Below, one piece after another: positions 1,759-55,079 of a DNA stretch of 64,000 bases. Every line of letters starts with the position of its first letter. The stretch's first letter is position 1. The notes beneath the pieces were generated by a model. That model searched no databases, was not told where the DNA came from, and was given only the letters and a program-made list of their open reading frames with translations. Source of the DNA: Firmicutes bacterium CAG:95 (lineage in GTDB: Bacteria; Bacillota; Clostridia; Lachnospirales; Lachnospiraceae); contig FR902981.1 in the NCBI GenBank assembly GCA_000438155.1, positions 22,734 to 86,733 on the forward strand, read 5' to 3'. The translations under genes were made by a program, and so were the position numbers.

Positions 1759-1873
1759 TTTTTTGTTTTTTGTATCTGTTTTTTTGAATTATATAGTTTT
1801 CATGCAACAGATTTAAGAAAAGCAATATCGTAAAATGAATATGCAGGAATATTTTGTATGGAGGTAAAGGAAG

Positions 1874-3361: not shown

Positions 3362-3365
3362 GAAC

Positions 3366-5738: not shown

Positions 5739-5752
5739 GAGAAGGAGAAATT

Positions 5753-7016: not shown

Positions 7017-7034
7017 GATAGGGAGAAATAGACT

Positions 7035-7553: not shown

Positions 7554-7574
7554 TTATAACGGTGAGGTGTACAA

Positions 7575-8819: not shown

Positions 8820-8830
8820 ACAAACATATA

Positions 8831-8889
8831 CTTCGTGCCATAATGGCACGAAGTAATGAAATATAGCAAAGGGTATATGAATTGGGAGC
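8831..8889. repeat. Hairpin-containing repeat, copy A (cttcgtgccataatggcacgaag ... tatagcaaa ... attggga)
   Basis: A 10-bp perfect stem with a taa loop. It is similar to the copy at 9537..9599 on the far side of the HD-GYP gene. Confidence 0.6.
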
Positions 8890-8901
8890 AAGACATAAGA
8901 A

Positions 8902-9549: not shown

Positions 9550-9599
9550 TGGCACGAAGTATTATTTTGGAAATTGCACATTATAGCAAAATATTGGGA
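9537..9599. repeat. Hairpin-containing repeat, copy B (cttcgtgtcatagtggcacgaag + U-tract ... tatagcaaa ... attggga). Acts as the terminator of the HD-GYP gene.
   Basis: The stem-loop spans the stop codon at 9547-9549 and is followed by uauuauuuugg. Homologous to copy A. Confidence 0.6.
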
Positions 9600-9671
9600 A
9601 AAATATAGCTTTCAGGGTTCATGTTTAGCCGAAGTGGCAACTTATAATCAGTTATATAACAGAAAAAAATT

Positions 9672-10613
9672 GTGAAAGAAGGAGTATCAATGGAAGATTA
9701 CAGACTTATTACAATGAAAGATTGTGAAGAAGTGGAATTGCAGAAGTGTATGGACACAATTAAAGAAAAAAATGTACTTCTTTATAAAAGTATCATGCGG
9801 TGTCTAAAAAAAGAAGATTTCAAGGGAATGCGTGATGATGTATTGCATTGTCTGGCTGATAATGCGGACAGATTTGAAAATGATAAGAATATGGAAATAT
9901 CATTTCAAATAGCTGATCTCTTGCAAGACCAGCGAATTAAACCGGAAGATTTTGAATGGCTGATTTCATATTGGAATACTACAACTCTTGCACCAAGTGC
10001 TGTGATAGTGCTTTTTATGATGGCATTAGACAAGAAGCTGCGCTTAGAAGAAATTCAGTCTTGTTTTGAAAGTGAAGATGAAATGTCTATTTTTGAACGG
10101 ATAGAAGGATATTCCAATGAGGATAAAGAACAGAATGAGAGTAATGCAATAACTGTAGTCAATACAGAGAAGGGAAACGTGCAGAATCCGGAGAATGAGC
10201 AGCAGATAAGGAACAGGAATGGGATTGTTTCTGTATTCAGTGATCTATTAACAGTTATGAGTAGTAGTAAGCAATTTGATGGTAATGATACGGTTTTATT
10301 CCAGAAGAAGTTTACAGAATTGATGACTTGTCTGCAGAATAATATAAATGAGGTCAATGCTTTTGCTGGAGAGATCATTCATGAATGGGAAAAGGATAAA
10401 GAGGAAGTGCGCCGTTTGAGGGCAATTTATAATATTCAGCAAAGTGCGTTGTCAAGACAGCAGCAGAATTTGTATGATGCAGAGGATGAAATATCCAGGC
10501 TGCAGGCAGCTGTCCGTGATGCTGAAAAAATGGAACAGCATTATGAAACAATTAGTCAAAAGGTGGAAGAGATTCAAAAGCTTACTAATACTGCCAATTC
10601 GATTGTAGATTAG
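9672..10613 (+). CDS. Hypothetical protein with a C-terminal coiled coil
   Basis: 313 aa. RBS gaaggag. No recognisable catalytic motif. Confidence 0.4.
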   Translation: MKEGVSMEDYRLITMKDCEEVELQKCMDTIKEKNVLLYKSIMRCLKKEDFKGMRDDVLHCLADNADRFENDKNMEISFQIADLLQDQRIKPEDFEWLISYWNTTTLAPSAVIVLFMMALDKKLRLEEIQSCFESEDEMSIFERIEGYSNEDKEQNESNAITVVNTEKGNVQNPENEQQIRNRNGIVSVFSDLLTVMSSSKQFDGNDTVLFQKKFTELMTCLQNNINEVNAFAGEIIHEWEKDKEEVRRLRAIYNIQQSALSRQQQNLYDAEDEISRLQAAVRDAEKMEQHYETISQKVEEIQKLTNTANSIVD

Positions 10614-10664
10614 AAGGTATGTATGAAATAGATGTCATTTGAATAGTAAAGGCAGGAAAAGTAT

Positions 10665-13600
10665 ATGGGAAATGTTATAGTATTGGCAAATTGCACAGAT
10701 GATAGTGCTGCGCATATTTTTGAAAAACTGAAAGCAAACCTTGTAAATCATGCTTTTGAGAACTGCGATAGTATTCAGACACTGATTCTTGATGAAAATG
10801 TTACAAACGTAGCATTTGATTGGGAAGGACATACTGGAAGTTACAATAATCGTAAAGTTTATGTTAAAAACAAAAATACTCTGTTTGAAATGTATGGCAA
10901 GGATAGTAATTATGTAAGTGCATTTGGTTCATCTGGAGATGTTGTTGTTTATATTCTAAATGACCAAACTGTAGATCAGGGAAGAAATGTTGAGCCAAAC
11001 GGAAATGTATTATCCTTATTGGGATATACCTGTTACGCACATTCCCTGGATTATAGTAGTTATATTACAGGTCTTGCAAATTCAGTTACGTTCTATAGTG
11101 TAAACAGTATAGATGCACAGCTTATGTCTGACCATGTGGTATCTGATAAGCCGGAAAATGTACCACAGACAGGAATTGATGCTTATTATAATGGCGTGAT
11201 TCTTACCACAAGAGACATTGTAAAGGATAATATGACAGTTATCCCGATTTATGGCAGTAACGAAGGGACAACAACATATAGTTCTGATGAGTTTTATATT
11301 ATTAGAACAACAGAATTTAATGAATTGGAAAATGCACAGACAGTTACAGAAGAAGGTGTTTCAGCGTTTGAACCTGTACATGCTATGGATACAGATTTGG
11401 ATGCTGGACAGGAAACTGGAACCATTTCGGTAACGGTTGTAGTATTCTATGAAAAAGATGGAGCTGAGGCATACTTTTCCGTTCCGGTATCAGTTCGTGT
11501 AGAGGAATACACAGACAAGTCATTTGTAGAACAGGAGTATGGTTCTTATGAGAATATTGTAAAAGAACTTGCTTCCTTATCGCAGAAAGTAGAGCAGCTG
11601 CAGCAGGAAATCGAAGCGCTACGTTCTGATAAAAATGCAGATACAGAAAAAATCAATCAATTATCTGTAGAATTGACAGCGTATAAGAGAGCATATGAAG
11701 CACTTTTAGAAAAATTCTCTGAATTTGTATCGAGTAGCACTACTGATGATTCCGGATATTTTGGAAAGTATGAGGACCCGGACACGGGAGAAGTAAAAGA
11801 TGTAGTATACATTGAAGGTAATCCGATAGAATATGAGGATACTGGAGAAACAACCCAAGACGGAAAGAAAATTTATATTTGCAGGTATGATGTAGACGGA
11901 GATGGTGAAGCAGAAACAATCAAATTTTATGTGGACGAGCGAGGAGTTCACATTGTTGATGATACGGGAACTGACACTGGAAAAGTCTTTGAAGATACTT
12001 TAGGAGCAATTCAAAGACAGACGGCTGCTAAGCTGAAAGAAATTGAAAAAGCACTGAATGCATCGCAGACTGGTCTTAATAGTATTATTGAGGCATTAAA
12101 GGAAGCTGGTTATGATTTTGACCTGGATGTGACTGTAGATGAACAGTATAAGGAAGTCGTAAAAGATATTAAGGATATGGCTGAGAGAATTAAGAATCTG
12201 GAAGCACAATTATCCGGAGCAAACCAAATGACATCCCAATATGAAAGTGCATTGGCCAGCATCTACGCTTTGCTAACCAATTCTACCCTGGATCAGGATA
12301 ATGTAAGTGGTATTAATAATACTTTGCTTGCAATTACAAGTAAAATCTCCACGCTGCAAAATAATCTTGATGTAGCCAAAGCGACTGTGAAAGATTTGCA
12401 GGATAAGCTGACAACAGCAGAACAGGAATACAGTGCTTTAGAGGAAGAACTTGCAACAACAAAAAGTCAGCTGCAGAAGGCAAATGAAGATTTGGCAAAT
12501 GCACAGCAGCAGAAGGAAGATTTAATAGCTCAGTATGAAAAAGCATTAGCAGATGGAGATACTGCAGCTGCGGAACGTTTGCAGGCCCAGATTGCAGAAA
12601 CAGAAAATGCAATCCAGAAACTCACAGCTCTGCAGAGTACTCTTGTTCAAAAAGAACAGGATATTAAGGAGGCTCAGGATACAATCAGTCAGTTACGTGA
12701 GCAGCTTGATAAAAAGAATCAGGAAATTGCTGATTTGCGGGCACAGCTTGATGCACTGACTGATACAGCTGATGGATTTAAAATTACTGTCGATACAGCT
12801 AATAAAATGTTCGGGCTGACATTGCCGGATGGCTCCACAGATAAAGAAATTGCTGATGCAATTCAGAATTATGTACGTGATAAGATTACGTCAGATGAAA
12901 CAATAGAGGCAATTCAAAAATTGCTTAATACGGATAAGACAGGAAAGGAACTTGTAGCAGCGGTAAAGACGGCTATTGAAAATGCCGGAGATGAAAATCC
13001 TTCTGATGATGTTGCGGATCCGGACAGTAATAATTATAAAACTGGTTATCAACGAGGTTATGAAGAAGGTGTTACAGCAGGTGCCGCAGGAAAAACGGAT
13101 GATAAAGTAGTCAATATGCAGTCTGAAAGCTATAAACAGGGATATTCTACTGGTTATAATCAGGGATATGCAAAAGCCCTGACAGATAATCCTAATTCTG
13201 ACGGAAATGGAAGTTCTTCTTCGGATTATTCTGCATTAAAGGATCAGATTAACGGTCTGACATCCCAGGTTACAAATCTTACAACAAAGAATAGCCAACT
13301 CCAGAGTAAAGTAGACAAACTGGAGGATGATGTTGATGATCTTGAAAAGGATAATAAAAAGTTGAGCAGCGCAAATAGTAGCCTGGAAGAGAAAAATAGT
13401 TCACTTTCTTCTCAGGTAAATTCGTTAAACAGTGAGTTATCCGGATTAAAGACAACCAATACCAATCTGACATCCCAGGTTACGGAACTGAATAGTAAGA
13501 ATGGAAGCCTATCAAATCAGGTAACTGACCTTACAACAAAGAACAACTCCTTAACCTCAGAAATGTCAACTTTGAGGACACAGGTAAATAATGCAAATAG

Positions 13601-14567
13601 AAATACTACTACACCGGCAGCTTCCTCGACTTCAAAGCAGGAAAATAAAACGACGGCTTCCGATACTAAAGATGCAGCCTCTAAAGAGCAGAGAAAAGGG
13701 GAAGCTGATGATGGGGATGTAATTGAAGGTTCCACGAATAATTTGGATACCAAAACGGAAACGAAGAGCACAGCTGTACCGGATGCTTTAGTGGGGAGTA
13801 CGGTTGCGGCTGAAAACAGTCAAAAGAGACTAGGAACCACAAGTGAAGTTTCCATGTTTTCCGATACTGAGATTAACACCATTCCGGGAACCCAGTATGC
13901 AACAGGAAAAGTCATTCGTTTTGCAGAATCGAACCCGATTGTGAAGTTTTCAGATACAAACGGAAAGGAAATTAATGACATAACGGATGATTCTTTGGAA
14001 AATATTTATAAAATATTTAATTACTATGCAAACCACTTGGAGGAGCTTGGAAATCTGGGATCTGATGAAGTGATAAATGCAGCGAATGATGAATCCAAAG
14101 CGGTTATCTTGAGTTTGGTAGGCGCCGGTGATATTAAACCGAATGTCACTCAGGAAACAGCATTCCGCAATAACAGAAGTGCTATACTGAATCTCAAGTT
14201 TCCGAATATTACCACAGGTGCATTGTATCTTGTAGTGCATGAAAGAGCAGATCAGGCGGGACAGTATGAAGTGTGTCTGACAACAGCAACCGATAATTCT
14301 CTTTCTTTAAATGTAAGTAGTTTATCTCCAGTTGCTGTCGCAAAAGTTGAAATTAAGGATGCGACGGCAGTTGTAAATTCTACATTTACGGAAGATGTAG
14401 AAGCAATGAATACAGAGAAACCTGCAGAAACAAATACAGGAGCATTCAGAGTAGTTATGACGGTTCTGATTATTCTGATGCTGTTAGTATCTGTGGGAAT
14501 TGTAGTAATTCTTAAATTGAAACGTGAAGGAAAATTACCTCAATTCCTGTCGTTTTTATACAACTAA
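10665..14567 (+). CDS. Giant (1300 aa) coiled-coil, S/T-rich, C-terminally membrane-anchored protein. Candidate surface or mating-associated adhesin of the element.
   Basis: No N-terminal signal peptide. Hundreds of residues of heptad-like repeats (LTSQVTNLTTKNSQLQSKV...). T/S-rich linker. A C-terminal hydrophobic anchor (FRVVMTVLIILMLLVSVGIVVIL) followed by KLKREGK. No LPXTG motif. Confidence 0.5.
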   Translation: MGNVIVLANCTDDSAAHIFEKLKANLVNHAFENCDSIQTLILDENVTNVAFDWEGHTGSYNNRKVYVKNKNTLFEMYGKDSNYVSAFGSSGDVVVYILNDQTVDQGRNVEPNGNVLSLLGYTCYAHSLDYSSYITGLANSVTFYSVNSIDAQLMSDHVVSDKPENVPQTGIDAYYNGVILTTRDIVKDNMTVIPIYGSNEGTTTYSSDEFYIIRTTEFNELENAQTVTEEGVSAFEPVHAMDTDLDAGQETGTISVTVVVFYEKDGAEAYFSVPVSVRVEEYTDKSFVEQEYGSYENIVKELASLSQKVEQLQQEIEALRSDKNADTEKINQLSVELTAYKRAYEALLEKFSEFVSSSTTDDSGYFGKYEDPDTGEVKDVVYIEGNPIEYEDTGETTQDGKKIYICRYDVDGDGEAETIKFYVDERGVHIVDDTGTDTGKVFEDTLGAIQRQTAAKLKEIEKALNASQTGLNSIIEALKEAGYDFDLDVTVDEQYKEVVKDIKDMAERIKNLEAQLSGANQMTSQYESALASIYALLTNSTLDQDNVSGINNTLLAITSKISTLQNNLDVAKATVKDLQDKLTTAEQEYSALEEELATTKSQLQKANEDLANAQQQKEDLIAQYEKALADGDTAAAERLQAQIAETENAIQKLTALQSTLVQKEQDIKEAQDTISQLREQLDKKNQEIADLRAQLDALTDTADGFKITVDTANKMFGLTLPDGSTDKEIADAIQNYVRDKITSDETIEAIQKLLNTDKTGKELVAAVKTAIENAGDENPSDDVADPDSNNYKTGYQRGYEEGVTAGAAGKTDDKVVNMQSESYKQGYSTGYNQGYAKALTDNPNSDGNGSSSSDYSALKDQINGLTSQVTNLTTKNSQLQSKVDKLEDDVDDLEKDNKKLSSANSSLEEKNSSLSSQVNSLNSELSGLKTTNTNLTSQVTELNSKNGSLSNQVTDLTTKNNSLTSEMSTLRTQVNNANRNTTTPAASSTSKQENKTTASDTKDAASKEQRKGEADDGDVIEGSTNNLDTKTETKSTAVPDALVGSTVAAENSQKRLGTTSEVSMFSDTEINTIPGTQYATGKVIRFAESNPIVKFSDTNGKEINDITDDSLENIYKIFNYYANHLEELGNLGSDEVINAANDESKAVILSLVGAGDIKPNVTQETAFRNNRSAILNLKFPNITTGALYLVVHERADQAGQYEVCLTTATDNSLSLNVSSLSPVAVAKVEIKDATAVVNSTFTEDVEAMNTEKPAETNTGAFRVVMTVLIILMLLVSVGIVVILKLKREGKLPQFLSFLYN

Positions 14568-14580
14568 TTATGTGTTACGA

Positions 14581-14612
14581 GGGAGTGGTTGATAAAACCG
14601 CTCCCTTTTTTA
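14581..14612 (+). terminator. Rho-independent terminator after the 1300-aa gene
   Basis: gggagtggttgataaaaccgctccc + tttttt, 14 nt after the stop codon. Confidence 0.7.
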
Positions 14613-14735
14613 GACAATACAGCATAATTTTTTTTCTTTATAGCCTGAAGTATAACAAGGCAGGATGTTTAAGAAAGTATAATTAATACATGTATGTAAC
14701 TTGTAAAAATAAGAAGAAATGAAGGAGAAAGATTT

Positions 14736-15380
14736 ATGATTACAAAAAAGAAAATGTGCTTGGCGATAGTGGTAATTTTAGTTGTAAATATTCTGGTTAT
14801 TGCTGGTATTTTATACTATAGCAATATGAGGATGAAACAAGCATATGCCGTCGCACAAACGGAAAAAGAAGAGATGAATATGGATAATCTTACGACTGAT
14901 CTGGAAGAGGTAGCAAACGAGTACGGTGATGGAATGATTGATGCGGAAGATGATGGATTAGATAATTTGGATGTGCTGCGTAATGCACCATCAGCTGAAT
15001 CTTACAATAATGTTTATAATTCCTTGTTAATAGGAGATTATGTAACAGAGGATGGAACAGCTTTTCGTTTTTCCCCTGGCAATTCTTATTCGGGATATTT
15101 TAACGAAGATGCACCTGATGTAGTGAACTACTCCTATGAAATTGTAAATATAAGTGATACAGAAAATGAGATAGTCATTTATAGTGCGGATAAAAGGTCA
15201 GAGGTAAAGTATTCTCTGGATTTGGATATGGAAGGCAATGTAATACTTACCATTCCTGATACAGAAACGAAATATACCTTATGCTATGATGGAATGGCTT
15301 ATAAGGGAGATAAGCCTGCAAAGGTAGATGAGGAAAAGAAATCTGATGAATCGGATACAGAAAGCACTGATAATGAATAA
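14736..15380 (+). CDS. Signal-anchored acidic protein, function unknown
   Basis: N-terminal TM (MCLAIVVILVVNILVIAGILYY), acidic body. RBS gaaggagaaag. Confidence 0.45.
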   Translation: MITKKKMCLAIVVILVVNILVIAGILYYSNMRMKQAYAVAQTEKEEMNMDNLTTDLEEVANEYGDGMIDAEDDGLDNLDVLRNAPSAESYNNVYNSLLIGDYVTEDGTAFRFSPGNSYSGYFNEDAPDVVNYSYEIVNISDTENEIVIYSADKRSEVKYSLDLDMEGNVILTIPDTETKYTLCYDGMAYKGDKPAKVDEEKKSDESDTESTDNE

Positions 15381-15421
15381 TAGGAAAATTGACAAAGTAA
15401 AAGTAAAATGATACAATCTCC

Positions 15422-16159
15422 ATGGAGGTAGTTGTCATGGAAGCATGTGAATATTTTAAACAAAAAAGAGAGCAAACTGGAATGACTATTAGAGAATTTT
15501 GCAAAAAGGTCAATATTTCTGTAGGTTCCTGTGTTGAATATCAGAACGGAACCAAGTCTTTATTATCACTACCTTTGGATAAAACTATTCGTATTTTCTC
15601 TGTTATAAATATTCATATTGAAAGGTTTTATGATGATTACTTTCCTGAATTAAAAGAAGAAATTACAAAAAGAATGATTGTATGGGAAGAAAAGAGAGCA
15701 CCGGAACTTGATCTGGTGAAGCTTCAACACCGCTATCGTGCCCGGATTGCAAAGATGAAAGAGCGTAAGGTATTGCCTGATGTGGAAATAGAACAATTCC
15801 TGCAGGAATATAAGACTCTTTTTAAAGGGTTGAAGGCGGAGATGGATAGCTGTGGAAATATTTCTGAAATCTTATATAAGGAGAGAATATTACCATTTTC
15901 CTGTAGATTGAAAAAACAGATAGAAAATGGAGAAATCAAGAATCCTGTATCAAGACGGATTAATGATGCTATGTTAGCAAAAGAAATAACATATGTGGAA
16001 CTGGCACATATTGTAGATATTACTCCGGTTAGCTTGACCTATGCAAAGACATCCCAAACAGGATATTCAAGTATGAAGATAGGCACGGTACTTAAAATAT
16101 GCTATGCTTTGGATATATCATTTGACGAAATTTGTGAGTTGTTGCTTAAAAACATTTAA
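15422..16159 (+). CDS. Transcriptional regulator with two XRE-type helix-turn-helix domains
   Basis: HTH-like segments at the N-terminus (MTIREFCKKVNISVGSCVEYQNG) and C-terminus (ITYVELAHIVDITPVSLTYAKTSQTGYSSMKIGTVLKICYAL). Confidence 0.55.
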   Translation: MEVVVMEACEYFKQKREQTGMTIREFCKKVNISVGSCVEYQNGTKSLLSLPLDKTIRIFSVINIHIERFYDDYFPELKEEITKRMIVWEEKRAPELDLVKLQHRYRARIAKMKERKVLPDVEIEQFLQEYKTLFKGLKAEMDSCGNISEILYKERILPFSCRLKKQIENGEIKNPVSRRINDAMLAKEITYVELAHIVDITPVSLTYAKTSQTGYSSMKIGTVLKICYALDISFDEICELLLKNI

Positions 16160-16194
16160 AAGGCTATTTTGATTTAGTAAAGGCAACGGTTAGA

Positions 16195-16245
16195 AACCTC
16201 TTTTTTGTTATGCTATTAGTAGAATGACAGAAAAGAGGTTTTTTT
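16195..16245 (+). promoter_or_regulatory. Hairpin plus U-tract between the regulator and the next gene. The right arm overlaps the RBS of the 16246 ORF, so it is a terminator or a translational attenuator.
   Basis: aacctcttttttg ... cagaaaagaggtt then ttttttt and ATG. The aagagg Shine-Dalgarno lies inside the 3' arm. Confidence 0.4.
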
Positions 16246-16974
16246 ATGAACTATACGACAGTAAACATACAAGATGAGCAGCAAACCCGGCATGAATTTT
16301 TATATGGATTGCAAACAATGGCCGTACTATTCAGAAACATAAGACATAAGGGATTTATGTCTGATAGCAGAGAAGGCAAGGTGGTTCTTAGATTTAGTCA
16401 TGAATGCAGTTCAGCCAAAGATTTTCTTTCTTATCTGTTAGCGGTTCATGAAACCGGGCAGGTTATGCTACAGCATGGCGATGTAATTGGCATTAAGATT
16501 AATGGTTCTATTATCTGCTACAGGTATACTGAGCAAGGACACACAAATAAAGATTTGCTGATTTGGAATTATTTTACGGAGCATAAAGAGTTTGAAAAGC
16601 GAGAAAAAGAGAGATATGTTACTAATCTCCATAAGAATAATCAGGTGCTTGATGTGTTGTCTGGTAAGGTCGTGAACATTGATAGTATTCAGTTTGCAGA
16701 TACACGCATCTGTGCCATTGATCAGGAATGTTATTATCCACATGGAGATAGGAGCAGCTTAATTATCACTGATTATTTTGTATATGAATTGAAAGATATG
16801 GGTATAGAAAACATAAATCCTTACCAAAGACCGTTTTGCGATATTAAGTCTGCTTTTATGTTTTTCCAGCATAATAAAAAGAAAGATAGGTATAGTCAGC
16901 GGCTTTTATTATTGAATAGAAAAGAATTGTATTTAGTACGGGACTACAGGCACTTGTTGACAATAGCATTATAG
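16246..16974 (+). CDS. Hypothetical protein (element cargo)
   Basis: 242-aa ORF with an RBS. No recognisable motif. Confidence 0.4.
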   Translation: MNYTTVNIQDEQQTRHEFLYGLQTMAVLFRNIRHKGFMSDSREGKVVLRFSHECSSAKDFLSYLLAVHETGQVMLQHGDVIGIKINGSIICYRYTEQGHTNKDLLIWNYFTEHKEFEKREKERYVTNLHKNNQVLDVLSGKVVNIDSIQFADTRICAIDQECYYPHGDRSSLIITDYFVYELKDMGIENINPYQRPFCDIKSAFMFFQHNKKKDRYSQRLLLLNRKELYLVRDYRHLLTIAL

Positions 16975-16986
16975 GGAGGTTAAGAT

Positions 16987-18855
16987 ATGGAACAGAAAAG
17001 AAAAGAAGACCTAGTAAATAGTGATGATATTTTTAAATATCAGTTATTGAGCAGACTGCAGGGTGACTGCGAATATTATTTAGGAAATGGTAATCGAAAT
17101 AAAAAGCAGTTATGGGCAGAGGATGAGCGTGAGCAGATAGAAGTGATGAAATTACTGTATAATAGCTTTGGGGATGAAAATAAGCCAGAATGGCTCTCAA
17201 TGACAGATATTGAAAACTATGAAAAGCAGATGGTAGTAGATATAACACTTGAAGAGCGTTATACAGAAGCTATGAGAATGACAGGATATGATCGTATTGA
17301 AACACCAACAGACAGTATGGCAACAGTATCCTTTGTTTTTCGTACAGCACCGGAGAGAAGGATAGATGCTGACGGATGGGAGGCATTAGGGGAAGAGCTT
17401 GAAGGTATGAGTCCAATCCTTGAAAGTGATAGAGCAAAATATGAAGATTTAATACATCCGAGTGGTAGAATTGCTTATTATACTCTTAACTTGGAAGGGA
17501 GTGGTATGGACTCTGACCTTAAACCTGTTACTTATTCAAATATAAAGGATGCATTGAGTGCCTACTTAATGTCAGATGCAGATGGTAAACAGTTAGGGTA
17601 CATAATCCATGGTGAACTGCAGTGCATGAGTCATTTTGATTATGTAGATATGAAGAATCATATTACATCCTTATCCGATCCGGCATTATATAATGAAGAA
17701 CTGGCAGGGAATGAAAAGCAAATTATTAGAAAATCATATTCTTCTATGAAAACTATTTTGGATAAGGATAATGTTTATTGTGCATTAAAAGCAGGCGTTG
17801 ATTACATAGAAAACGTATGTATAGGAGAGGTTGGACGAGAAAATACAGAATGGGGAGCATGGAGTGGAAGAGTGGCGAATACTCATCGTCCACAGGATTA
17901 TCTCGATATTAATATTATGGGATATGAGAGACCGCATCTGGTTATATATACTTTATCAGCAGTTCATGCCAATGAAATTGTTCAGGAAATGCAGTATACG
18001 GTTCACACCAATCCCGAAAGACTTGTGGAAAGTATAAGGCAAGGAACAAAAAATATTTCAGAAGAGATTGATGAATTTCTGCATATGGCAGTAGAAAAGT
18101 TAGATACGGATATTATATATCCTATGCAGTTTTATTCGCCATATACGAACAGAGAACTCACAGAGCATTATAGAAAATTGGAAAATGCAGGATATGATCC
18201 TTTACCGTTGAACCAGGAACAGGAAGTACAGGTGGTCACCCCGGACAAAATAAAGGATTTTGTGAAAAAGTATTATGATCATTATGATGGATTGGTTTGC
18301 ACAGAAAAGATATCTGAGGTTCTGGCAGTTTCCATTCAAAAGATGATTGATGCAAAACAAATGGATAACACAAAAGAATCAATAGAGAATGTATTATGTA
18401 AAGAAAGCACACTACATTTTATTGTTTCCAGAATGCCTAATGTGTCTCCGGTGCCGGAAGAAGTAAAGAATGATGTTGTATCATATTTTGAACAATCGTC
18501 AGGTCTTGCAAATTATAAGCCGGTTGAGATATGCAGAGTGTCAAATGATCCGGAAGATTCTCATTTATATGCGGTAATTGGGTATAACTCACAAATGAAT
18601 CAGTATGCATGTTGGACTTCATGGAACCAGGACCGGCATAGTTTAAATTATGGTCATCATAATCTTATGGATGAACAGACAGCAGTTGATACTATTAAGG
18701 AAAGGTTTAATGATATAACAGATGAAGTTCAGAAATATGGTATTGATAATACTTTGTTTAAACTTGTGTCAAGTGAATCTGAAAGAAGTAAGCCGGATGT
18801 AGAAAAGATAGAAGCAGATATTCCGGTAAAATTAAATGGAAGAAGAGGAAGATAA
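16987..18855 (+). CDS. Large hypothetical protein (622 aa) of conjugative-element cargo
   Basis: RBS gggaggt. No P-loop or nuclease motif seen. The N-terminal YLGNGNRNKKQLWAEDERE block resembles conserved domains of unknown function seen in ICE/plasmid accessory proteins. This is from memory, not verified. Confidence 0.4.
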   Translation: MEQKRKEDLVNSDDIFKYQLLSRLQGDCEYYLGNGNRNKKQLWAEDEREQIEVMKLLYNSFGDENKPEWLSMTDIENYEKQMVVDITLEERYTEAMRMTGYDRIETPTDSMATVSFVFRTAPERRIDADGWEALGEELEGMSPILESDRAKYEDLIHPSGRIAYYTLNLEGSGMDSDLKPVTYSNIKDALSAYLMSDADGKQLGYIIHGELQCMSHFDYVDMKNHITSLSDPALYNEELAGNEKQIIRKSYSSMKTILDKDNVYCALKAGVDYIENVCIGEVGRENTEWGAWSGRVANTHRPQDYLDINIMGYERPHLVIYTLSAVHANEIVQEMQYTVHTNPERLVESIRQGTKNISEEIDEFLHMAVEKLDTDIIYPMQFYSPYTNRELTEHYRKLENAGYDPLPLNQEQEVQVVTPDKIKDFVKKYYDHYDGLVCTEKISEVLAVSIQKMIDAKQMDNTKESIENVLCKESTLHFIVSRMPNVSPVPEEVKNDVVSYFEQSSGLANYKPVEICRVSNDPEDSHLYAVIGYNSQMNQYACWTSWNQDRHSLNYGHHNLMDEQTAVDTIKERFNDITDEVQKYGIDNTLFKLVSSESERSKPDVEKIEADIPVKLNGRRGR

Positions 18856-24927: not shown

Positions 24928-25446
24928 GCTGCAAATGATTTATTATGTTCTTCTGGAATTGTTGGGTTCATTGGAGAGAACGGAGCTGGAAAGAGTTCAA
25001 CCATTAAGGCAATTCTTAATTTAGTACATAAAGAAACGGGTGATATTTATCTCTTTGGACATCCAATGGAGGGCAATGAAAAGGAGAATGGAAGCAATCA
25101 GTGGAAGGAACAGCTTGGTGTTATTTTTGATGAATGTAATATGCCTGTTGAGTTCACGGCAAAGGAGATTCATCATATTATGAATGAGTTTTACCGGACA
25201 TGGGAGGGAAAAGAAATATTTTGCTTATTTAAGGAAGCTTCAGGTTCTTACAGACAAGAAGGTAAAGGATTTGTCGAAGGGAATGAGATTCCGGATGAGC
25301 AGATCATCGGAAAGATGGAAAATGCATATGGAGCCCATGTACTGGTAAAAAATACGGCAGGATGGAAACAGGAAGGATTTGTTGTGGATCATGCTTCCGT
25401 TGAAGATATTTTGCTTTATATTGTTAAGAGAGACGAGGTGAGATAA
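24928..25446 (+). pseudogene. Remnant of an ABC-transporter ATP-binding protein, BcrA/lantibiotic-immunity type
   Basis: The open frame begins right after a TAA with no start codon. Walker A is intact (GFIGENGAGKSSTIK). There is no ABC signature or Walker B, and the product is only about 170 aa, so the gene is N-terminally truncated and internally deleted. Confidence 0.6.
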
Positions 25447-25448
25447 GA

Positions 25449-25670
25449 ATGAAAGGATTATTGTTAAAGGATTTATACAATGTAAAAGGATTTGCCAGAC
25501 AGTATGTGATCGTTATTCTGGCGATGGCTGTGTGGGGAGTCTGCATGAAAAATATATCATTTGTGTCGATTTATATGGTGATTCTAGGTGGGATGATGAG
25601 CATTACAACCATGAGCATGGATGAAAGCAGTGGATTTAATAAGTTTTATCTCACAACTTGCGAGGAGTGA
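25449..25670 (+). pseudogene. N-terminal fragment (73 aa, 2 TM) of an ABC-2 type permease
   Basis: MKGLLLKDLYN... is a typical ABC-2 permease start. The frame ends after two helices. Confidence 0.5.
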
Positions 25671-25747: not shown

Positions 25748-27280
25748 ATGGAAAAAGCAGATAGTTATCAGGTAAGAAAACTGAATCCGAGGAAAGAGTA
25801 TCTTATTCAGGTGCCAGGGTCGAAAAGTATTACCAACCGGGCGTTTTTGTTAGCTGCGCTATCCGGTAAGAAGTGTGTATTGTCGGGAGTCCTGTTTAGT
25901 GATGATACAAGAGGCTTCTTAGACTGTCTGATCCAGCTTGGATTCCGGGTAGAAATCAAGGAAGAAAAGCAGAAGGTGACCATTCAGGGTACGGATGGCA
26001 GGATTCCAAACCCGGAGGCATCCATCAATGTAAGAAGTGCAGGAACAGCGGCACGGTTTCTTACGGTTGCACTGGCTTTTGCAGGTGGTAATTATTATCT
26101 GGATGCATCCGAACAGATGCGTAAGCGTCCGATGGAGCCGATCCTGAAAATATTAGAGAAATTGAATGTTAAATTCAGATTTAATAATGAAGAATATCAT
26201 TTTCCCTTTGAACTGTCTTCGCAATTTACAGAAGATGAAGAACAGAAAGATAAAGTACAGAATGATAAAATACAGAAAGACAAAATACAGAAGATGGAAG
26301 CGGAAGAAGATAGATGCCGGAATGATGTAGCACAGGAAGAGAATGAGATGAGTGAAATCACTATTGATACGAATCTCAGCAGTCAGTTCGCAAGTGCCTT
26401 ACTGATGGCAGCATGCCTCCTTCCAACGGGATTAAAGATACATCTGACCGGAAGCAGAACCGCTGGATCCTATATTAAAATGACACTTGCTATGATGAAG
26501 CAGTTTGGCATTCGGGTGGAACAGTCAGAAAACTGCTATGTGATCGCTCATCAGGAAGGATGGGGGCTTACGGAATATGAAGTTGAGCCGGATGTATCGG
26601 CAGCCTGCTACTTTTATGCCATGGTTCCTTTACTGAAAACAAGTGTTATTGTTAAGGGGGTTCAGGAGAAATCCTTACAGGGAGACATTCAATTCCTGAA
26701 CGTATTGGAACAGATGGGATGTCAGAAAGAGAAGACGCCCAAAGGAATACGGCTGACTATGAAGGAGCCGGAAATGCATGGCGTGGATATTTCGATGAAG
26801 GACTTTTCGGATCAGACGATGACACTGGCTGCGCTTGCACCTTTTGCAGACCGTGTTACCAGAATTCACAATATCGGACATATACGTTTTCAGGAATCGG
26901 ACCGGATCCGTGCGATTTTGACAGAATTGCAGCGAATGGGAGTTCGGTGCGAAGAGGCTCCGGAGATTGACGGAATTCAGATTTTTCCGTGGGGGAAAGT
27001 TCCTGAAGATCATATTGTAGCGGAAGGTGAAAGTACAATAGAATGTGAAAGTACAACAGAGAATGAAAGTGCAGCAGAAAGTAAAAGTGCAGCAGAGCGT
27101 GAAAGTATAATAGAACGTGGAAACATAACAATAGAAACCTACGATGACCACCGGATGGCAATGGCGTTTACGCTTCCGGGATTAAAGACGGGAAATATAG
27201 TGATTAAGAATCCGGGATGCTGCCGCAAAACATTTGAAAATTACTTTTCGGTAATTGATTCCTTATATCAGTGTCATTGA
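25748..27280 (+). CDS. aroA: 3-phosphoshikimate 1-carboxyvinyltransferase (EPSP synthase) with two low-complexity in-frame insertions
   Basis: The LIQVPGSKSITNRAFLLAAL motif and the overall EPSPS layout. 510 aa versus the usual 430-450 aa, because of D/K/Q- and E/S-rich inserts. Confidence 0.85.
   Translation: MEKADSYQVRKLNPRKEYLIQVPGSKSITNRAFLLAALSGKKCVLSGVLFSDDTRGFLDCLIQLGFRVEIKEEKQKVTIQGTDGRIPNPEASINVRSAGTAARFLTVALAFAGGNYYLDASEQMRKRPMEPILKILEKLNVKFRFNNEEYHFPFELSSQFTEDEEQKDKVQNDKIQKDKIQKMEAEEDRCRNDVAQEENEMSEITIDTNLSSQFASALLMAACLLPTGLKIHLTGSRTAGSYIKMTLAMMKQFGIRVEQSENCYVIAHQEGWGLTEYEVEPDVSAACYFYAMVPLLKTSVIVKGVQEKSLQGDIQFLNVLEQMGCQKEKTPKGIRLTMKEPEMHGVDISMKDFSDQTMTLAALAPFADRVTRIHNIGHIRFQESDRIRAILTELQRMGVRCEEAPEIDGIQIFPWGKVPEDHIVAEGESTIECESTTENESAAESKSAAERESIIERGNITIETYDDHRMAMAFTLPGLKTGNIVIKNPGCCRKTFENYFSVIDSLYQCH
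26250..26294. repeat. 3 x 15-nt in-frame tandem repeat inside aroA, encoding DKVQN/DKIQK/DKIQK
   Basis: gataaagtacagaat gataaaatacagaaa gacaaaatacagaag. Confidence 0.7.
27029..27118. repeat. 5 x 18-nt in-frame tandem repeat inside aroA, encoding ESTIEC/ESTTEN/ESAAES/KSAAER/ESIIER
   Basis: gaaagtacaatagaatgt gaaagtacaacagagaat gaaagtgcagcagaaagt aaaagtgcagcagagcgt gaaagtataatagaacgt. Confidence 0.7.
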
Positions 27281-27332: not shown

Positions 27333-28865
27333 TTGGATAATTTCATAAGAGGTGCTATGGAAGAGTATTGGGATATTTTTTTAGAGGAACAACAGAATAG
27401 AGAATTGGAACGGGTACTGCTCGTCGGAGTAGATACGGGAGAAGAACAGAATTTTGATAACTCCATGGAAGAATTGAAACAACTGGCGAAGGCGTGTTTC
27501 ATGGAACCGGTTGGGACGGTTACCCAAAGAATGGAATTCGTGCATAAAGCACTTTACATTGGAACCGGAAAGGTACAGGAAGTACGGGATGCTGCGCAGG
27601 CTTTGGATGCGCAGCTTATTCTAATTAATGATACCTTGACGCCTTCCCAGATCAAAAACCTGCAGAATGAATTAAAAACACCTGTTATTGATCGGACAAC
27701 CCTGATTCTCAATATTTTTGAGATGAGAGCCAGAACACGGGAAGCCAGGTTACAGGTAGAAACAGCCAAGCTGCAATATCTCCTGCCGCGTCTTGTTGGA
27801 ATGCATGAGGCACTGACCAGACAGGGAGGAACCAGTGGCAGTATGAGCAGCCGTGGTGCCGGAGAGAAAAAGCTGGAGCTTGACCGCCGTCACATTGAGC
27901 ACCGTATCAGTGAACTGCGTAAAGAACTGGATGCCATTTCCAGAGAACGTGAAACACAGAGAAAGCGCAGGGGACAATCCCGAATTCCTCTGGTAGCATT
28001 GGTTGGCTATACGAATGCAGGAAAATCGACCATTATGAATCATATGGTCGAACGGTTTGTAGGGGATGAAGAGAAAAAGGTGCTGGAAAGGGATATGCTT
28101 TTCGCAACACTGGATACGACAATCCGGCGGATCAACACCGGAAATAATCAGGATTTTCTGCTAACGGATACAGTCGGGTTCATTCATAAGCTTCCACATG
28201 GTCTTGTGAAGGCATTCCATTCGACATTGGAGGAAATTAAAGGAGCAGATCTGCTCCTGCAGGTCGTGGATGTTTCTGACCCCGGGTATCAGGAACAGAT
28301 GGAGACTACGAGAGAGACCCTGCGGGAGTTGGGGGCTGGAGATATTCCCATGCTGATTGTCTTTAATAAGGCCGATCGGCTCACGAATACAGCGAATACG
28401 ACCGGGAAGCCACGGAACCAGATGGAGCAGGAGCAGAAACTACAGAACCAGAAACTACAGAACCAGAAACTACAGGACCAGAAACTACAGGATCAGAAAT
28501 TGCAGGATCAGAATCCACAGAATCAGATGCTGCAGCTTCACAAGACACCGGATCAGGAAAAAGAATTGCAACAGATGTCTTTGGGGGAAACCACATATCC
28601 GAGAACAGCAGGAACGAATAAGATATACATCAGCGCAAGGCAGCCGGAATCCATCGAATTACTGGTAAAGGAAATTATCAGGAGAGTTTATGCAGATTAT
28701 GAGGAGGTTCGCTTGCTGATTCCCTATGACAAGGGCAGCATTGTTTCGTATCTGCAGGAAAATGCACAGATTCTGGAACAGTCCTATGAACCTGAAGGAA
28801 CACGGCTTCGTGTGAATTGCCATCATGCCGATGCCGGGAAGTATGAGCAGTATGTTGTGAAGTGA
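27333..28865 (+). CDS. hflX: GTPase HflX with a Q/K-rich tandem-repeat insertion
   Basis: HflX N-domain, then G1 (ALVGYTNAGKST), G3 (DTVGF) and G4 (NKAD). 510 aa versus about 420-440 aa. Confidence 0.85.
   Translation: MDNFIRGAMEEYWDIFLEEQQNRELERVLLVGVDTGEEQNFDNSMEELKQLAKACFMEPVGTVTQRMEFVHKALYIGTGKVQEVRDAAQALDAQLILINDTLTPSQIKNLQNELKTPVIDRTTLILNIFEMRARTREARLQVETAKLQYLLPRLVGMHEALTRQGGTSGSMSSRGAGEKKLELDRRHIEHRISELRKELDAISRERETQRKRRGQSRIPLVALVGYTNAGKSTIMNHMVERFVGDEEKKVLERDMLFATLDTTIRRINTGNNQDFLLTDTVGFIHKLPHGLVKAFHSTLEEIKGADLLLQVVDVSDPGYQEQMETTRETLRELGAGDIPMLIVFNKADRLTNTANTTGKPRNQMEQEQKLQNQKLQNQKLQDQKLQDQKLQDQNPQNQMLQLHKTPDQEKELQQMSLGETTYPRTAGTNKIYISARQPESIELLVKEIIRRVYADYEEVRLLIPYDKGSIVSYLQENAQILEQSYEPEGTRLRVNCHHADAGKYEQYVVK
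28434..28535. repeat. About 6-7 copies of a 15-nt in-frame tandem repeat in hflX, encoding QKLQN/QKLQD
   Basis: cagaaactacagaac cagaaactacagaac cagaaactacaggac cagaaactacaggat cagaaattgcaggat cagaatccacagaat. Confidence 0.7.
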
Positions 28866-35159: not shown

Positions 35160-35882
35160 ATGGATCTGATTGATATTCATTGCCATATTTTGCCTGGGGC
35201 TGATGATGGATCCAAGTCTATGGAGGAAAGTCTTGCAATGTTACGGATTGCACAGCAAAATGCTATCCGTACTATCATTGTGACACCACATAATAAACCT
35301 GGACGACACAATATTCACATCCCCAGTATGAATGTCTATATTAAACAACTACAGGAGCAGATGGGCAGAGCCGGATTGTCAATTGAACTAATCGGAGGAA
35401 ATGAGCTCTATTATCGTATGGAACTTGCACAGGAGCTGCATGGCGGCGTGGCAAGGACGATGGCGGATTCCAGATATGTACTTTTGGAATTTGGACCAAT
35501 GGATGATTACGATTATCTGCGTAATGGTGTCTATGACCTTTTGTCTGAAGGTTATTTCCCGATTATAGCACATGTGGAGCGATATCAGTGCCTGGCAGAT
35601 CATGTTGAACGTATCAAAGATCTGACAGGAATGGGCGCGTATATTCAGGTGAATGCCGGAAGTGTAATGGGTAATGTGGGGTTTGGAATGAAGAGCTTTA
35701 CACGAAAGCTGTTAAAGCAGGAGCTGGTACATTTTGTGGCAACAGATGCACATGACACGAAGAAACGGGCACCGGAATTAAAGAAATGTGCGGATTATAT
35801 TGTTCACAAATATGGGAATCAATATGCTGAGGATATTTTTGTGAATAATCCGGAACATGTTATACGAAATGAGATTCTCTGA
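35160..35882 (+). CDS. PHP-family Mn-dependent protein-tyrosine phosphatase (CpsB/YwqE type)
   Basis: MDLIDIHCHILPGADDGSKSMEESL...VTPH is the CpsB/YwqE signature. Confidence 0.8.
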   Translation: MDLIDIHCHILPGADDGSKSMEESLAMLRIAQQNAIRTIIVTPHNKPGRHNIHIPSMNVYIKQLQEQMGRAGLSIELIGGNELYYRMELAQELHGGVARTMADSRYVLLEFGPMDDYDYLRNGVYDLLSEGYFPIIAHVERYQCLADHVERIKDLTGMGAYIQVNAGSVMGNVGFGMKSFTRKLLKQELVHFVATDAHDTKKRAPELKKCADYIVHKYGNQYAEDIFVNNPEHVIRNEIL

Positions 35883-35929
35883 TGAATCCTGTCAGATGAT
35901 TAATGTGAGAAATTACCAAGGAGAACTTC

Positions 35930-36664
35930 ATGGAAAATCAAAATGAACGTGATGAAATAGAAATTGATCTTGTGGAGTTGTTTTATGTCCTGTGGGGACA
36001 TGTGTGGCTGATCTTAAGTATCGGTCTTTTTTGTGCGCTCAGCTGTTTTGCTCTAAGCAAGTTCGTAATTGCTCCGACGTATAAGTCTACAACCAAAATA
36101 TATATTTTAAATAAGAGCGACAGTTCTTCTGTTACCTACAGTGACGTGCAGATGGGGACACAGCTTACGAAGGATTATACGGAGCTGATCAACAGCCGTT
36201 ATGTATTGGAGGCTGTGATTCAGGAGCTTGGTTTAAATATGGAATACAAAGATCTGCTTAAGAAGATCGATGTAACAACGCCGAGTGATACGCGAATCGT
36301 TTCGATTACCGTAGAGGATCACGATCCGGTGCAGGCAATGAATATAGCGAATTCTGTAAGAGAAAATGCAAGCACCCATATTCAGAATGTTATGGACATT
36401 GACGCAGTTAATGTAGCAGAGACGGCCAATATGCCAACCGAAAAGGCATCCCCGGGCTGCTCAAAATGGGCACTTATCGGAGGACTGCTTGGATGTCTTG
36501 GAATCAGTGCAATAATTCTGATTCGTTATCTCATGGATGATACGATCAAGTCGTCGGATGATATTGAGAAGTATCTGGGCTTAAGCACACTGGCACTGAT
36601 TCCCATGAAGGAAGATGAGGTCAATTCCAAAAAGAAAAAGAAGAAGCATAAACAGAGTAAGTAA
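35930..36664 (+). CDS. Wzz/CpsC/YwqC-type chain-length determinant, the transmembrane modulator of a BY-kinase
   Basis: EIDLVELFYVLWGHVWLILSIGLFCAL N-terminal TM. Second TM near the C-terminus (WALIGGLLGCLGISAIILI), then a K-rich tail. Confidence 0.75.
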   Translation: MENQNERDEIEIDLVELFYVLWGHVWLILSIGLFCALSCFALSKFVIAPTYKSTTKIYILNKSDSSSVTYSDVQMGTQLTKDYTELINSRYVLEAVIQELGLNMEYKDLLKKIDVTTPSDTRIVSITVEDHDPVQAMNIANSVRENASTHIQNVMDIDAVNVAETANMPTEKASPGCSKWALIGGLLGCLGISAIILIRYLMDDTIKSSDDIEKYLGLSTLALIPMKEDEVNSKKKKKKHKQSK

Positions 36665-36739
36665 GGTGTTAAGGAATAACGGGATGATCCCGGATGGGAT
36701 CACGAAGGAAACATAGAGAAGCACGGGAAGATAAGGAGA

Positions 36740-37660
36740 ATGACCATGGATGAGTTAACCATGCAGCATGTATCTTTACGATTTGATAAATCTGAGGATT
36801 ACCGGATTAAAGAAGCATTCAAAACATTGCGCACCAACATTGAATTCAGCGGTGCAGACTTAAAGGTAATCGCCGTAACCAGCTGTACTCCGAATGAAGG
36901 AAAAAGCTCGGTTGCCATGGAACTTGCCAAAGCTTTTGCAGAGGCAGGAAAACGGACACTGCTTATCGATGCCGATATGCGTAAGTCTGTATTAGTAGGG
37001 AGATACAAAACAGGTGCAGTGCGCCTGGGTTTGACTCACATTCTGGTGGGACGGGAGAAACTGAGTGATGTGATCTGTAAAACAAACTTCCCCAAGTTGT
37101 ACATGATTTTTGCAGGCCCCGTTCCACCTAACCCCAGTGAGCTTCTTGGCGGAGAAAATTTTGAACGCCTGATTAATAAAGCAAAGCAGCTGTTTGATTA
37201 TGTGATTGTGGATACTCCACCGCTTGGGAGTGTAATTGATGCAGCAGTTGCTGCCAAGAAGTGTGATGGAACCATTCTTGTTATTGAGAACAATGCGATC
37301 AGTTATAAATTTGCACAAAATGTAAAAGCACAGCTTGACAAGACAGAAAGCCGTATCCTGGGTGTCGTTCTTAACAAGGTGGATATGAGTACGAAGAGCT
37401 ATGGTCATTATGGTAAATACTATGGCAAATATTATGGAAAATATTACGGACAATACGGAAATGAAGGCGGACATGCGAAGACAACAGATCTGAGCAGGCA
37501 GGGAGCGGAAGAAGCCGGAGCAGAAGCAGGAATGCGTGCTTCAAGAAAATTAACCGAGAAGCGTCCGATGGATTCGACAGTAGAAGAAAGTGCAGAATCG
37601 GATCTGAATCTGGATGAGATGCTGGATAGAGGTTCTGACTTAGAAGAGATAAATTTGTAG
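36740..37660 (+). CDS. Bacterial tyrosine protein kinase (CpsD/YwqD BY-kinase) with an extended C-terminal tyrosine cluster
   Basis: Walker A (TSCTPNEGKSSVAMELA), Walker A'/B, and the Y-cluster KSYGHYGKYYGKYYGKYYGQYG, followed by an acidic tail. Confidence 0.8.
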   Translation: MTMDELTMQHVSLRFDKSEDYRIKEAFKTLRTNIEFSGADLKVIAVTSCTPNEGKSSVAMELAKAFAEAGKRTLLIDADMRKSVLVGRYKTGAVRLGLTHILVGREKLSDVICKTNFPKLYMIFAGPVPPNPSELLGGENFERLINKAKQLFDYVIVDTPPLGSVIDAAVAAKKCDGTILVIENNAISYKFAQNVKAQLDKTESRILGVVLNKVDMSTKSYGHYGKYYGKYYGKYYGQYGNEGGHAKTTDLSRQGAEEAGAEAGMRASRKLTEKRPMDSTVEESAESDLNLDEMLDRGSDLEEINL

Positions 37661-37745
37661 TCTGAACTGATTTGAAAAGATGCGCGAACAGTATATGCTG
37701 TCGGAAAAATTACAGCCGGAATAAATGTGACAGAGGAATAAAAGT

Positions 37746-38639
37746 ATGAAAGACAGTGGAAAATGGGCAGTTGTTTTTACCGTTTTAAATATCATATTGA
37801 TTACCGTTTGTGTGGTGCTGCTGCTTAATAAGGACAGGAAACCGCCGGTAATTTCTTTTTCCGGAAATGACCTGATTTATTACAGTGGCATTGACAATGA
37901 GAAGCTTCTGCAGGGAGTGGGCGCTGTAGATGCCAAGGACGGAGATGTCACAGACCGGATCGTAGTAGAAAAGATTGTTCAGAATAAGAATGAAAACCGA
38001 GCCATTGTTTATTATGCGGTAACGGATCTTGACGGAAATGCGGCGAAAGCATCCAGAGTGTTTGAAGCAGTAAACGAAGCTACCGGAGATGCTATGAAGG
38101 ATATCGGAATGGCAGGATTTGACGGAGACATGGATGGATCGCTTCCGGGTGAGCCGGAGACTTTGGAACCTGCAGATGCACAGGAAGAAGAACTACAGGC
38201 CACAGCAAATGCAGAAGATACGTCGGAAGAGGATACAGAAGCTGAAAGTTCTCCTTCCGTATCACCGACACCGGATATAGAGGAACAACGCCGTAAAGAG
38301 CAGGAAGAGGCGGACCGGAAGGCACAGGAAGAGGAAGAGCAAAGACAACAGGAAGAAGCGAGGAGACGGCAGGAGGAGGAAGCTGCTGCCAAGGCCGGAA
38401 ATCCGAAAATTATCTTAAAGAGTACTACCGTAAATGCGACCGCCGGGCAGCTTCCGGCATGGATTGATGCGGTTGGGAGCTTTCAGGATGATAAGGATGG
38501 ATATGAGACGTTATTTAAGAATCTGAAGGCGTCCAAATATGATGTCAATGCCAGGGGAGATCATGCCGTAACGCTGACGACGACAGACTCTGATGGGAAT
38601 GTGTCGGATCCGGTGAGTGTGACGGTGCATGTGAAGTGA
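37746..38639 (+). CDS. Membrane-anchored protein with two Ig-like (DUF5011-type) domains separated by an acidic E/Q/R linker
   Basis: N-terminal TM. The blocks DGDVTDRIVVEKI...YYAVTDLDGNAAKASR and ...YDVNARGDHAVTLTTTDSDGNVSDPVSVTVHV resemble bacterial Ig-like repeats. Confidence 0.45.
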   Translation: MKDSGKWAVVFTVLNIILITVCVVLLLNKDRKPPVISFSGNDLIYYSGIDNEKLLQGVGAVDAKDGDVTDRIVVEKIVQNKNENRAIVYYAVTDLDGNAAKASRVFEAVNEATGDAMKDIGMAGFDGDMDGSLPGEPETLEPADAQEEELQATANAEDTSEEDTEAESSPSVSPTPDIEEQRRKEQEEADRKAQEEEEQRQQEEARRRQEEEAAAKAGNPKIILKSTTVNATAGQLPAWIDAVGSFQDDKDGYETLFKNLKASKYDVNARGDHAVTLTTTDSDGNVSDPVSVTVHVK

Positions 38640-53535: not shown

Positions 53536-53558
53536 ATGCTGTATCCTCCCGATTTTAT

Positions 53559-53858: not shown

Positions 53859-53869
53859 AATATCCCTCC

Positions 53870-54455: not shown

Positions 54456-54459
54456 ATCT

Positions 54460-55075: not shown

Positions 55076-55079
55076 ACCT

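Follow-up and report, generated by a model that had tools for sequence, protein, structure and literature searches.

Tandem Repeat Arrays in aroA and hflX

The DNA analyzed here is a stretch of 64,000 nucleotides (the window) of contig FR902981.1 from the Lachnospiraceae bacterium Firmicutes bacterium CAG:95 (assembly GCA_000438155.1, positions 22,734 to 86,733, forward strand). Two adjacent housekeeping genes of this window, aroA, which encodes EPSP synthase (EPSPS), and hflX, which encodes a GTPase, contain three tandem repeat arrays that are translated in frame as parts of additional peptide segments (inserts). The features of the locus, in positions of the window, are the following:

25748..27280, forward strand: aroA, EPSP synthase of 510 aa, identified by its open reading frame (ORF), Pfam and PDB matches and an AlphaFold2 (AF2) model
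26228..26344, forward strand: aroA insert 1, approximately residues 161–199, 38 additional residues in the turn between strands 154–158 and 202–207
26227..26295, forward strand: aroA array 1, 15-nt units in frame, from Tandem Repeats Finder (TRF) and the codon listing, with clean units at 26249–26293
27005..27121, forward strand: aroA insert 2, approximately residues 420–458, about 42 additional residues in the turn between strands 409–412 and 460–462
27023..27119, forward strand: aroA array 2, 18-nt units in frame, from TRF and the codon listing, also with a superperiod of 36 nt
26675..27151 and 26856..27161, reverse strand: two overlapping antisense ORFs from the mechanical ORF list, spurious, lying over a strongly conserved sense frame
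27357..28865, forward strand: hflX, GTPase of 502 aa with an ATG start, identified by Pfam, homologues and PDB entry 8a57_D
28383..28586, forward strand: hflX insert, approximately residues 343–410, about 67 additional residues that separate the G4 motif NKAD from the G5 motif SAR
28434..28527, forward strand: hflX array, 15-nt units in frame encoding QKLQ(N/D), from TRF and the codon listing

Array 1 of aroA was detected by TRF at 26227–26292 with 4.5 copies, 84% matches and a score of 83; with a period of 30 nt it reached 26295 and a score of 94. Its clean units read DKVQN, DKIQK and DKIQK in the codon listing. Array 2 consisted of 5.4 copies with 77% matches and a score of 89 (99 with the period of 36 nt), and its codons were arranged as six hexapeptides of the type E-x-E-S-x-x, starting at position 27023. 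For the hflX array, 6.3 copies with 88% matches and a score of 118 were obtained, and QKLQ(N/D) was found five times in the codon listing. The units of 15, 18, and 15 nt are all in phase with the coding frame, and no other array in the 64 kb had a TRF score of at least 80. When the window was shuffled 40 times with its dinucleotides preserved, the TRF scores reached at most 63, compared with 83–118 for the real arrays, and 200 codon shuffles per gene gave top scores of 58 and 54.

Position of the Inserts in EPSP Synthase and HflX

The AroA protein matched both domains of Pfam family PF00275 (E-value 3.3e-91, 306.5 bits vs. a cut-off of 22.8), the match being split by the inserts, and 39 EPSPS chains of the PDB were also matched. 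The AF2 model, built on a deep alignment that included cluster representatives, had a mean predicted local distance difference test score (pLDDT) of 89.4 and a predicted template modelling score of 0.87, and presents the two-domain inside-out alpha/beta fold of EPSPS. Its superposition with Foldseek on the closed enzyme of Escherichia coli (1g6s, 3fk0) gave a template modelling score of 0.93, normalized to the target, and a root mean square deviation of 2.2–2.3 Å. In an alignment of 83 homologues, residues K26, R31, Q213, E383, R386, D467, H468, R469, and K494 were invariant, and S211 and D355 were conserved in at least 90% of the sequences. The E. coli active-site residues that we take to be the equivalents of these positions are K22, R27, S169-Q171, D313, E341, R344, H385, R386, and K411, a correspondence drawn from alignment and not from a solved complex. 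The EPSP synthase of the window appears to be fully functional. Additionally, codon 104 of aroA (around 26057..26059) encodes the invariant Phe of an AGTA-x-R-F-L motif in the EPSPS clade of the window, a position occupied by Pro in the plant and E. coli enzymes, where a substitution of this Pro alters the sensitivity to glyphosate.

The length of AroA is 510 aa, compared with 423–437 aa in insert-free relatives. Among the matches listed, all 28 distant EPSPS (35–55% identity) have a one-residue turn at the site of insert 1, vs. 39 residues in the window, and a four-residue turn at the site of insert 2, vs. approximately 39–42 residues. The PDB alignment is interrupted at insert 1, between residues 136 and 142 of 7m0o, and insert 2 directly precedes the DHR active-site motif. 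Both inserts were assigned to the tips of beta-hairpins because each sits between paired strands in the AF2 model. The pLDDT values were 51–57 in insert 1 and 43–66 in insert 2, with flanks of at least 95, and residues 164–184 of insert 1 were modelled with low confidence as a charged helix. Both inserts are predicted by this model to be flexible and to lie outside the conserved fold.

In HflX, the Pfam domains GTP-bdg_N, GTP-bdg_M, and MMR_HSR1 (PF13167, PF16360, and PF01926) all scored over their cut-offs, and the protein matched PDB entry 8a57_D with an E-value of 3.5e-119, in an alignment interrupted at the insert, between residues 326 and 327. The insert-free relatives of 435 aa have the sequence NKADR-L(F/T)xxx-YPR at this site. 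With regard to the start of hflX, the mechanical ORF begins at a TTG at 27333; the ATG at 27357 is favored by the homologues, which start with MEEYW, and by a good ribosome-binding site (AGAGGTG).

These results agree in several respects with a first-pass annotation of the window, which had been made from the nucleotide sequence alone. It had described in-phase arrays of 15 and 18 nt in aroA, which were recovered by TRF, by the codon listings and against shuffled sequences, and had noted the same phenomenon in hflX, where the adjacent gene does carry an in-frame 15-nt array. The excess of about 70 aa that it had given for AroA was correct, the difference from the insert-free relatives being 73–80 aa. 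It had also interpreted the in-frame repeats as low-complexity surface insertions and proposed an alignment with EPSPS orthologues as a check; in an alignment of this kind both inserts fell at turns of the distant EPSPS, and in the model at surface hairpin tips.

Copy Number Variation Among Strains

The copy number of the arrays was compared in public metagenome assemblies. The protein collection used is non-redundant and similar loci are listed once, so the fractions given below are not population frequencies. The 120 best AroA matches had identities of 81–99% and lengths of 448–549 aa, and anchored extraction of the inserts showed that these length differences correspond to whole repeat units. 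The 99 species-level AroA sequences included 43 distinct sequences of insert 1, with lengths of 32, 37, 42, 47, and 52 aa (steps of 5 aa), and 59 distinct sequences of the insert-2 segment, with lengths of 41, 47, 53, 59, 65, 71, and 89 aa (steps of 6 aa). Between one and five units of array 1 were found in other strains, and one and the same AroA core was found with several insert lengths. For AroA pairs with the same core, the shares with unequal insert lengths (45% and 61%) were also calculated and discarded, since in a non-redundant collection pairs of this kind are bound to differ at some position.

A similar pattern was observed in HflX, whose relatives occur in three forms: an insert-free form of 435 aa (approximately 96% identity outside the insert), forms of 467–475 aa, in which the proto-insert is Q-rich, lacks repeats and measures about 32 aa, and a ladder of 477, 482, 487, 492, 497, and 502 aa. 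In locus L090, from a Hadza-derived contig, hflX has five identical consecutive units. The window and locus L081 are exactly one 15-nt unit apart in array 1 of aroA, and likewise in the array of hflX, and the codons on either side are the same in both. Moreover, eight loci with an identical AroA protein, and with 0–3 nt differences in aroA and hflX outside the insert, had 0, 5, 6, or 7 hflX units. Since the flanks are nearly identical and the units differ, the arrays change about as fast as single substitutions arise across several kb of flanking DNA.

In the alleles examined, the length changed in steps of complete units of 15 or 18 nt, with the reading frame left open. Identical alleles were recovered repeatedly: P0013 from 16 contigs, P0016 from 23, and P0066 from 17, belonging to different studies and to SPAdes, MEGAHIT, and Logan assemblies. 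On the same contigs the neighboring genes did not vary in this way; LigA was constant at 651 aa, and the pseudouridine synthase had 236 aa in all the loci except L082 (270 aa, with another start call). An assembly artefact is therefore unlikely to account for the bulk of the array variation, and is possible for the longest alleles that were found on a single contig.

The length polymorphism suggested earlier, with slippage as its proposed cause, was accordingly found in abundance, as whole-unit steps between strains. Counting of the units across strains and metagenome sequences had been proposed together with it, a fixed number being the result that would have spoken against it, and the copy number proved to vary widely. 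The antisense ORFs over aroA, which had been considered by-products of the repeats, are both present, and the longest antisense open stretch measured 119 aa in locus L089 (which lacks insert 2), 168 aa in the window and 210 aa in an allele of 13 units. Because their length grows with the number of repeat units, these ORFs do behave as by-products.

Evolutionary Origin, Selection and Recombination

Shorter and more degenerate versions of the inserts were found in the relatives. In the sister lineage represented by L089 (GCA_963634025.1), insert 1 contains two degenerate pentapeptide units; insert 2 is absent, its site reading PGENITIETYDD, and so is the insert of hflX. Short degenerate variants of the aroA inserts were present in sequences P0110–P0120, and relatives at 82–88% identity have intermediate and differently composed inserts at site 2. 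In two AroA sequences of a sister lineage (P0109 and P0117), a separate small tandem duplication, DEFT-DEFT-EGSG, was observed in insert 1, and therefore this loop keeps gaining new repeats. A derivation of the 18-nt unit from duplicated codons of the ancestral GENITI strand was also considered; by visual comparison, 8 of its first 12 nt agree, which is suggestive and not demonstrable.

At a larger distance, the representative of the 50%-identity cluster to which the AroA of the window belongs is insert-free (437 aa). The 150 nearest EPSPS cluster representatives were aligned with the fast mode of MAFFT (151 sequences), and approximately 28 of the 150 have acquired insertions independently at one of the two sites or at both, some of which (P0263, P0282, and P0285) are clearly repetitive. 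Therefore, both hairpin tips are recurrent permissive sites in this EPSPS clade. The earlier statement that such expansions inside an essential metabolic enzyme are unusual in bacteria was thus too strong for this clade, given how often the same two sites take up insertions.

The ratio of nonsynonymous to synonymous substitution rates (dN/dS) was calculated between the window and three other loci, the codon sets of the inserts being small. The values were 0.07–0.10 for the core of aroA and 0.05–0.07 for that of hflX, and 0.42–1.07 and 0.10–0.24, respectively, for the insert-aligned codons. Both cores are under strong purifying selection; the insert codons of aroA are near neutral, and the hflX insert is relaxed yet not free. 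Additionally, the synonymous divergence between the window and L090 was 0.10 in aroA and 0.47 in hflX, and from this jump a recombination breakpoint between both genes was deduced.

Repeats in the Rest of the Window

No comparable array was found in the other approximately 55 ORFs of the window. The low-entropy, K/E/Q-rich proteins among them, which the first-pass annotation had regarded as signs of the same process, were checked and contained no tandem arrays. Its proposal of a genome-wide tendency also found no support within the window, where only aroA and hflX carry such arrays and their density is unremarkable: 3 arrays in 64 kb (47 per Mb), compared with 28 arrays (33 per Mb) in unrelated bacterial loci totalling 856 kb. 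A 12-nt array of four copies at 37409–37456 was rejected as a similar repeat, as it is the ordinary tyrosine cluster (YGKYYGKYYGKYYGQYG) of the C-terminal tail of a CpsD-like kinase. This kinase belongs to a capsule-type locus at 35160..38639, formed by a CpsB phosphatase, a Wzz-like chain-length protein, the CpsD-like P-loop kinase and then a surface protein with an E/Q-rich linker.

The units of aroA and hflX were searched for in the whole 64 kb and were not found outside their own arrays, and no inverted repeats were found within the inserts. A shared origin of array 1 of aroA and the hflX array, whose units have AAA-xTA-CAG in common, was also considered; the best rotation matched at 10 of 15 positions, a value reached by 295 of 5000 shuffles and therefore not significant. 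No intein domain was reported by Pfam in AroA or HflX, whose inserts are of 38–67 aa and low complexity; an intein comprises at least some 130 aa and carries a splicing motif at each of its two junctions.

Interpretation of the Arrays

Most probably, the arrays are coding-region minisatellites, that is, in-frame variable-number tandem repeats (VNTRs), gained and lost by slippage or unequal exchange and tolerated at permissive surface loops. They have the attributes of coding VNTRs, namely head-to-tail units above chance, lengths in phase and in multiples of three, and whole-unit differences between strains with conserved flanks. Each array lies within a lineage-specific insertion at a structurally permissive surface site, these sites being the two beta-hairpin tips of EPSPS and the loop between G4 and G5 of HflX. 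Growth would have been stepwise, from shorter, degenerate proto-inserts still present in the sister lineages, and the copy number would change through slipped-strand mispairing in the course of replication or through unequal exchange among the units. As the changes are multiples of three, in hydrophilic and solvent-exposed loops that lie remote, along the strand, from the active site, almost every allele would be tolerated, and with such tolerance the polymorphism would be close to neutral. No new mechanism is revealed by the arrays of aroA and hflX.

Several observations weigh against this interpretation. Slipped-strand mispairing is a presumed mechanism, as only its outcome, the insertion or deletion of whole units, is visible, and in this outcome slippage is not distinguishable from unequal recombination. 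Given the recombination at the locus, some combinations of alleles may have been shuffled and not newly mutated. Both inserts are kept in nearly all the species-level alleles, and the dN/dS of the hflX insert, well under 1, may reflect some constraint and hence some function. In addition, all the comparison sequences are metagenome assemblies, and the longest alleles, such as that of 13 units on a single contig, exceed the length of short reads and could be misassembled.

The same facts were weighed under other explanations. The length of these acidic or polar disordered loops might be an adaptive tuning knob, selected for solubility, stability or interaction with a partner or the ribosome, under diversifying or fluctuating selection. 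The presence of insert 1 in every relative of at least 81% identity, the retention of at least one unit per array in nearly all the species-level alleles, the sub-neutral dN/dS of the hflX insert, the charged helix predicted with low confidence in insert 1 and the recurrence of independent insertions at both hairpins would all fit with this idea. Sister lineages with 84–86% AroA identity, and approximately 96% identity of HflX outside the insert, nevertheless live without insert 2 and the hflX insert, and one near-clonal strain has zero hflX units. The insert codons of aroA evolve with a dN/dS of 0.4–1.1, the lengths are broadly distributed with no single favored value, and structural permissiveness by itself would equally predict repeated insertion at these sites, all of which makes adaptive tuning improbable. 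A functional role of loop length is conceivable, and nothing in the data requires one. It is more doubtful still that the arrays are selected, rapidly adjustable disordered appendages that tune AroA and HflX in this gut lineage, or that aroA-hflX is a local hotspot in which a specific feature of replication or recombination gives rise to in-frame arrays in neighboring essential genes, with the recurrent EPSPS insertions being a product of convergent selection.

A genome-wide mutational bias that seeds in-frame repeats in many proteins, of which aroA and hflX would be two examples, might be suggested by the concentration of three arrays in two adjacent housekeeping genes and by the K/E/Q-rich stretches of several other proteins of the window. 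This explanation is unlikely, considering that the only further in-frame array among the other ORFs of the window is the known functional tyrosine cluster and that the density of arrays matches that of unrelated loci. The proposal that the true arrays are fixed and the differences come from the assembly of short metagenomic reads starts from the fact that every comparison sequence is an assembly, that many alleles occur on one contig only and that some arrays reach 234 nt, longer than the usual reads. However, the units are degenerate (77–88% matches) and hence reads are placed uniquely, most arrays are of 45–110 nt, under the read length or a k-mer of k = 141, the same alleles came up on 16, 23, and 17 contigs across studies and assemblers, and the neighboring genes are constant in length on the same contigs; this account is very improbable. 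Finally, the inserts are discrete, lineage-specific and located at loops, as are the Rickettsia palindromic elements, and could be imagined as foreign or mobile in-frame sequences of that kind, or as mini-inteins, with the repeats as part of the element. Within the window the units are, however, confined to their own arrays, the three arrays have different units without significant similarity between array 1 of aroA and hflX, inverted repeats are absent from every insert, an intein would be longer and more complex than the inserts are and the graded intermediates of the sister lineages point to local growth, so a mobile origin is scarcely credible.

Comparison With Known Systems

The arrays of aroA and hflX, taken as coding minisatellites, can be compared with several known systems. 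In-frame VNTRs have been described in the pe/ppe genes of Mycobacterium tuberculosis (PMC12817950, where the contingency-locus concept is also mentioned) and tandem repeat loci in Clostridioides difficile (PMC2628660), and coding VNTRs are used for typing by multiple-locus VNTR analysis. The arrays described here share with them the head-to-tail units in multiples of three, the gain or loss of whole units between close strains, the conserved flanks and the use as markers. The classic examples are for the most part found between genes or in proteins that are secreted, located at the cell surface or non-essential, whereas those of aroA and hflX lie in the catalytic domains of two conserved cytosolic housekeeping proteins from an uncultured gut commensal. 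Transient low-complexity regions (LCRs) generated by slippage, with possible effects on ancestral functions too, have been reported in prokaryotic proteins (Persi et al., 2023, PMC10120016). They are likewise repeat-driven, fast-evolving and transient, slippage is proposed as their origin and old arrays degenerate by point mutation; that work, unlike the present one, is a statistical survey across genomes and does not include these genes, these sites or copy number variation in populations. The literature searched yielded general work on LCRs and VNTRs, and no paper that dealt with repeats in aroA or hflX or with VNTRs in the coding regions of gut commensals.

Resemblances to three further systems were considered. 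Low-complexity insertions occur in the housekeeping enzymes of Plasmodium falciparum and Dictyostelium, proteome-wide in those AT-rich eukaryotic genomes. They are similarly hydrophilic and repetitive, occupy loops at the surface of conserved enzymes and differ in length from one isolate to another; here, by contrast, the host is a bacterium and only two genes of the 64 kb contain such insertions. In contingency loci, a concept of Moxon, changes in the repeats turn expression on or off through a frameshift or through the spacing of the promoter. Hypermutable tandem repeats that change by slippage are common to both, but the alleles of aroA and hflX all preserve the frame and yield the protein in every case, without on/off switching. 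The Rickettsia palindromic elements are dispersed, palindromic mobile elements inserted in frame, and they also add peptide segments at loops of conserved proteins. In the window searched, the units are instead local, non-palindromic and gene-specific.

The locus provides a natural example of hypermutable in-frame minisatellites, with dozens of alleles, in the catalytic domains of two housekeeping proteins from a common uncultured lineage of human-gut Lachnospiraceae. As the three arrays are located within 2.3 kb, they could be useful for strain tracking, separating near-clonal strains that are unresolved by single-nucleotide variants. Moreover, the hairpin tips of EPSP synthase naturally take 40–80 extra residues, which is useful for the engineering of this agriculturally relevant enzyme. 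Orthology filters based on length or coverage, as well as callers of antisense ORFs, will be misled at such loci.

Neighboring Genes

Upstream of aroA (25066..25670), the window contains an ORF of 126 aa and a fragment of 73 aa of an ABC-2 membrane protein. In other strains (loci L090–L108), this region is occupied by an intact operon of a GntR regulator, an ABC ATPase and an ABC-2 permease of 212 aa, or by a MatE gene directly before aroA. At a greater distance, a CspB-type subtilase with a prodomain is encoded at 48958..50652, and an FtsK/SpoIIIE-family ATPase of 1469 aa was found near ORFs of approximately 100 aa at 53221..59489, on the reverse strand, in an arrangement that resembles a type VII (Ess-like) secretion locus. 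A long run of genes on the forward strand, at 232..18855, includes a coiled-coil protein of 1300 aa that has a membrane anchor at its C-terminus and low-complexity stretches rich in S, T, and N, and this run is possibly an integrated element.

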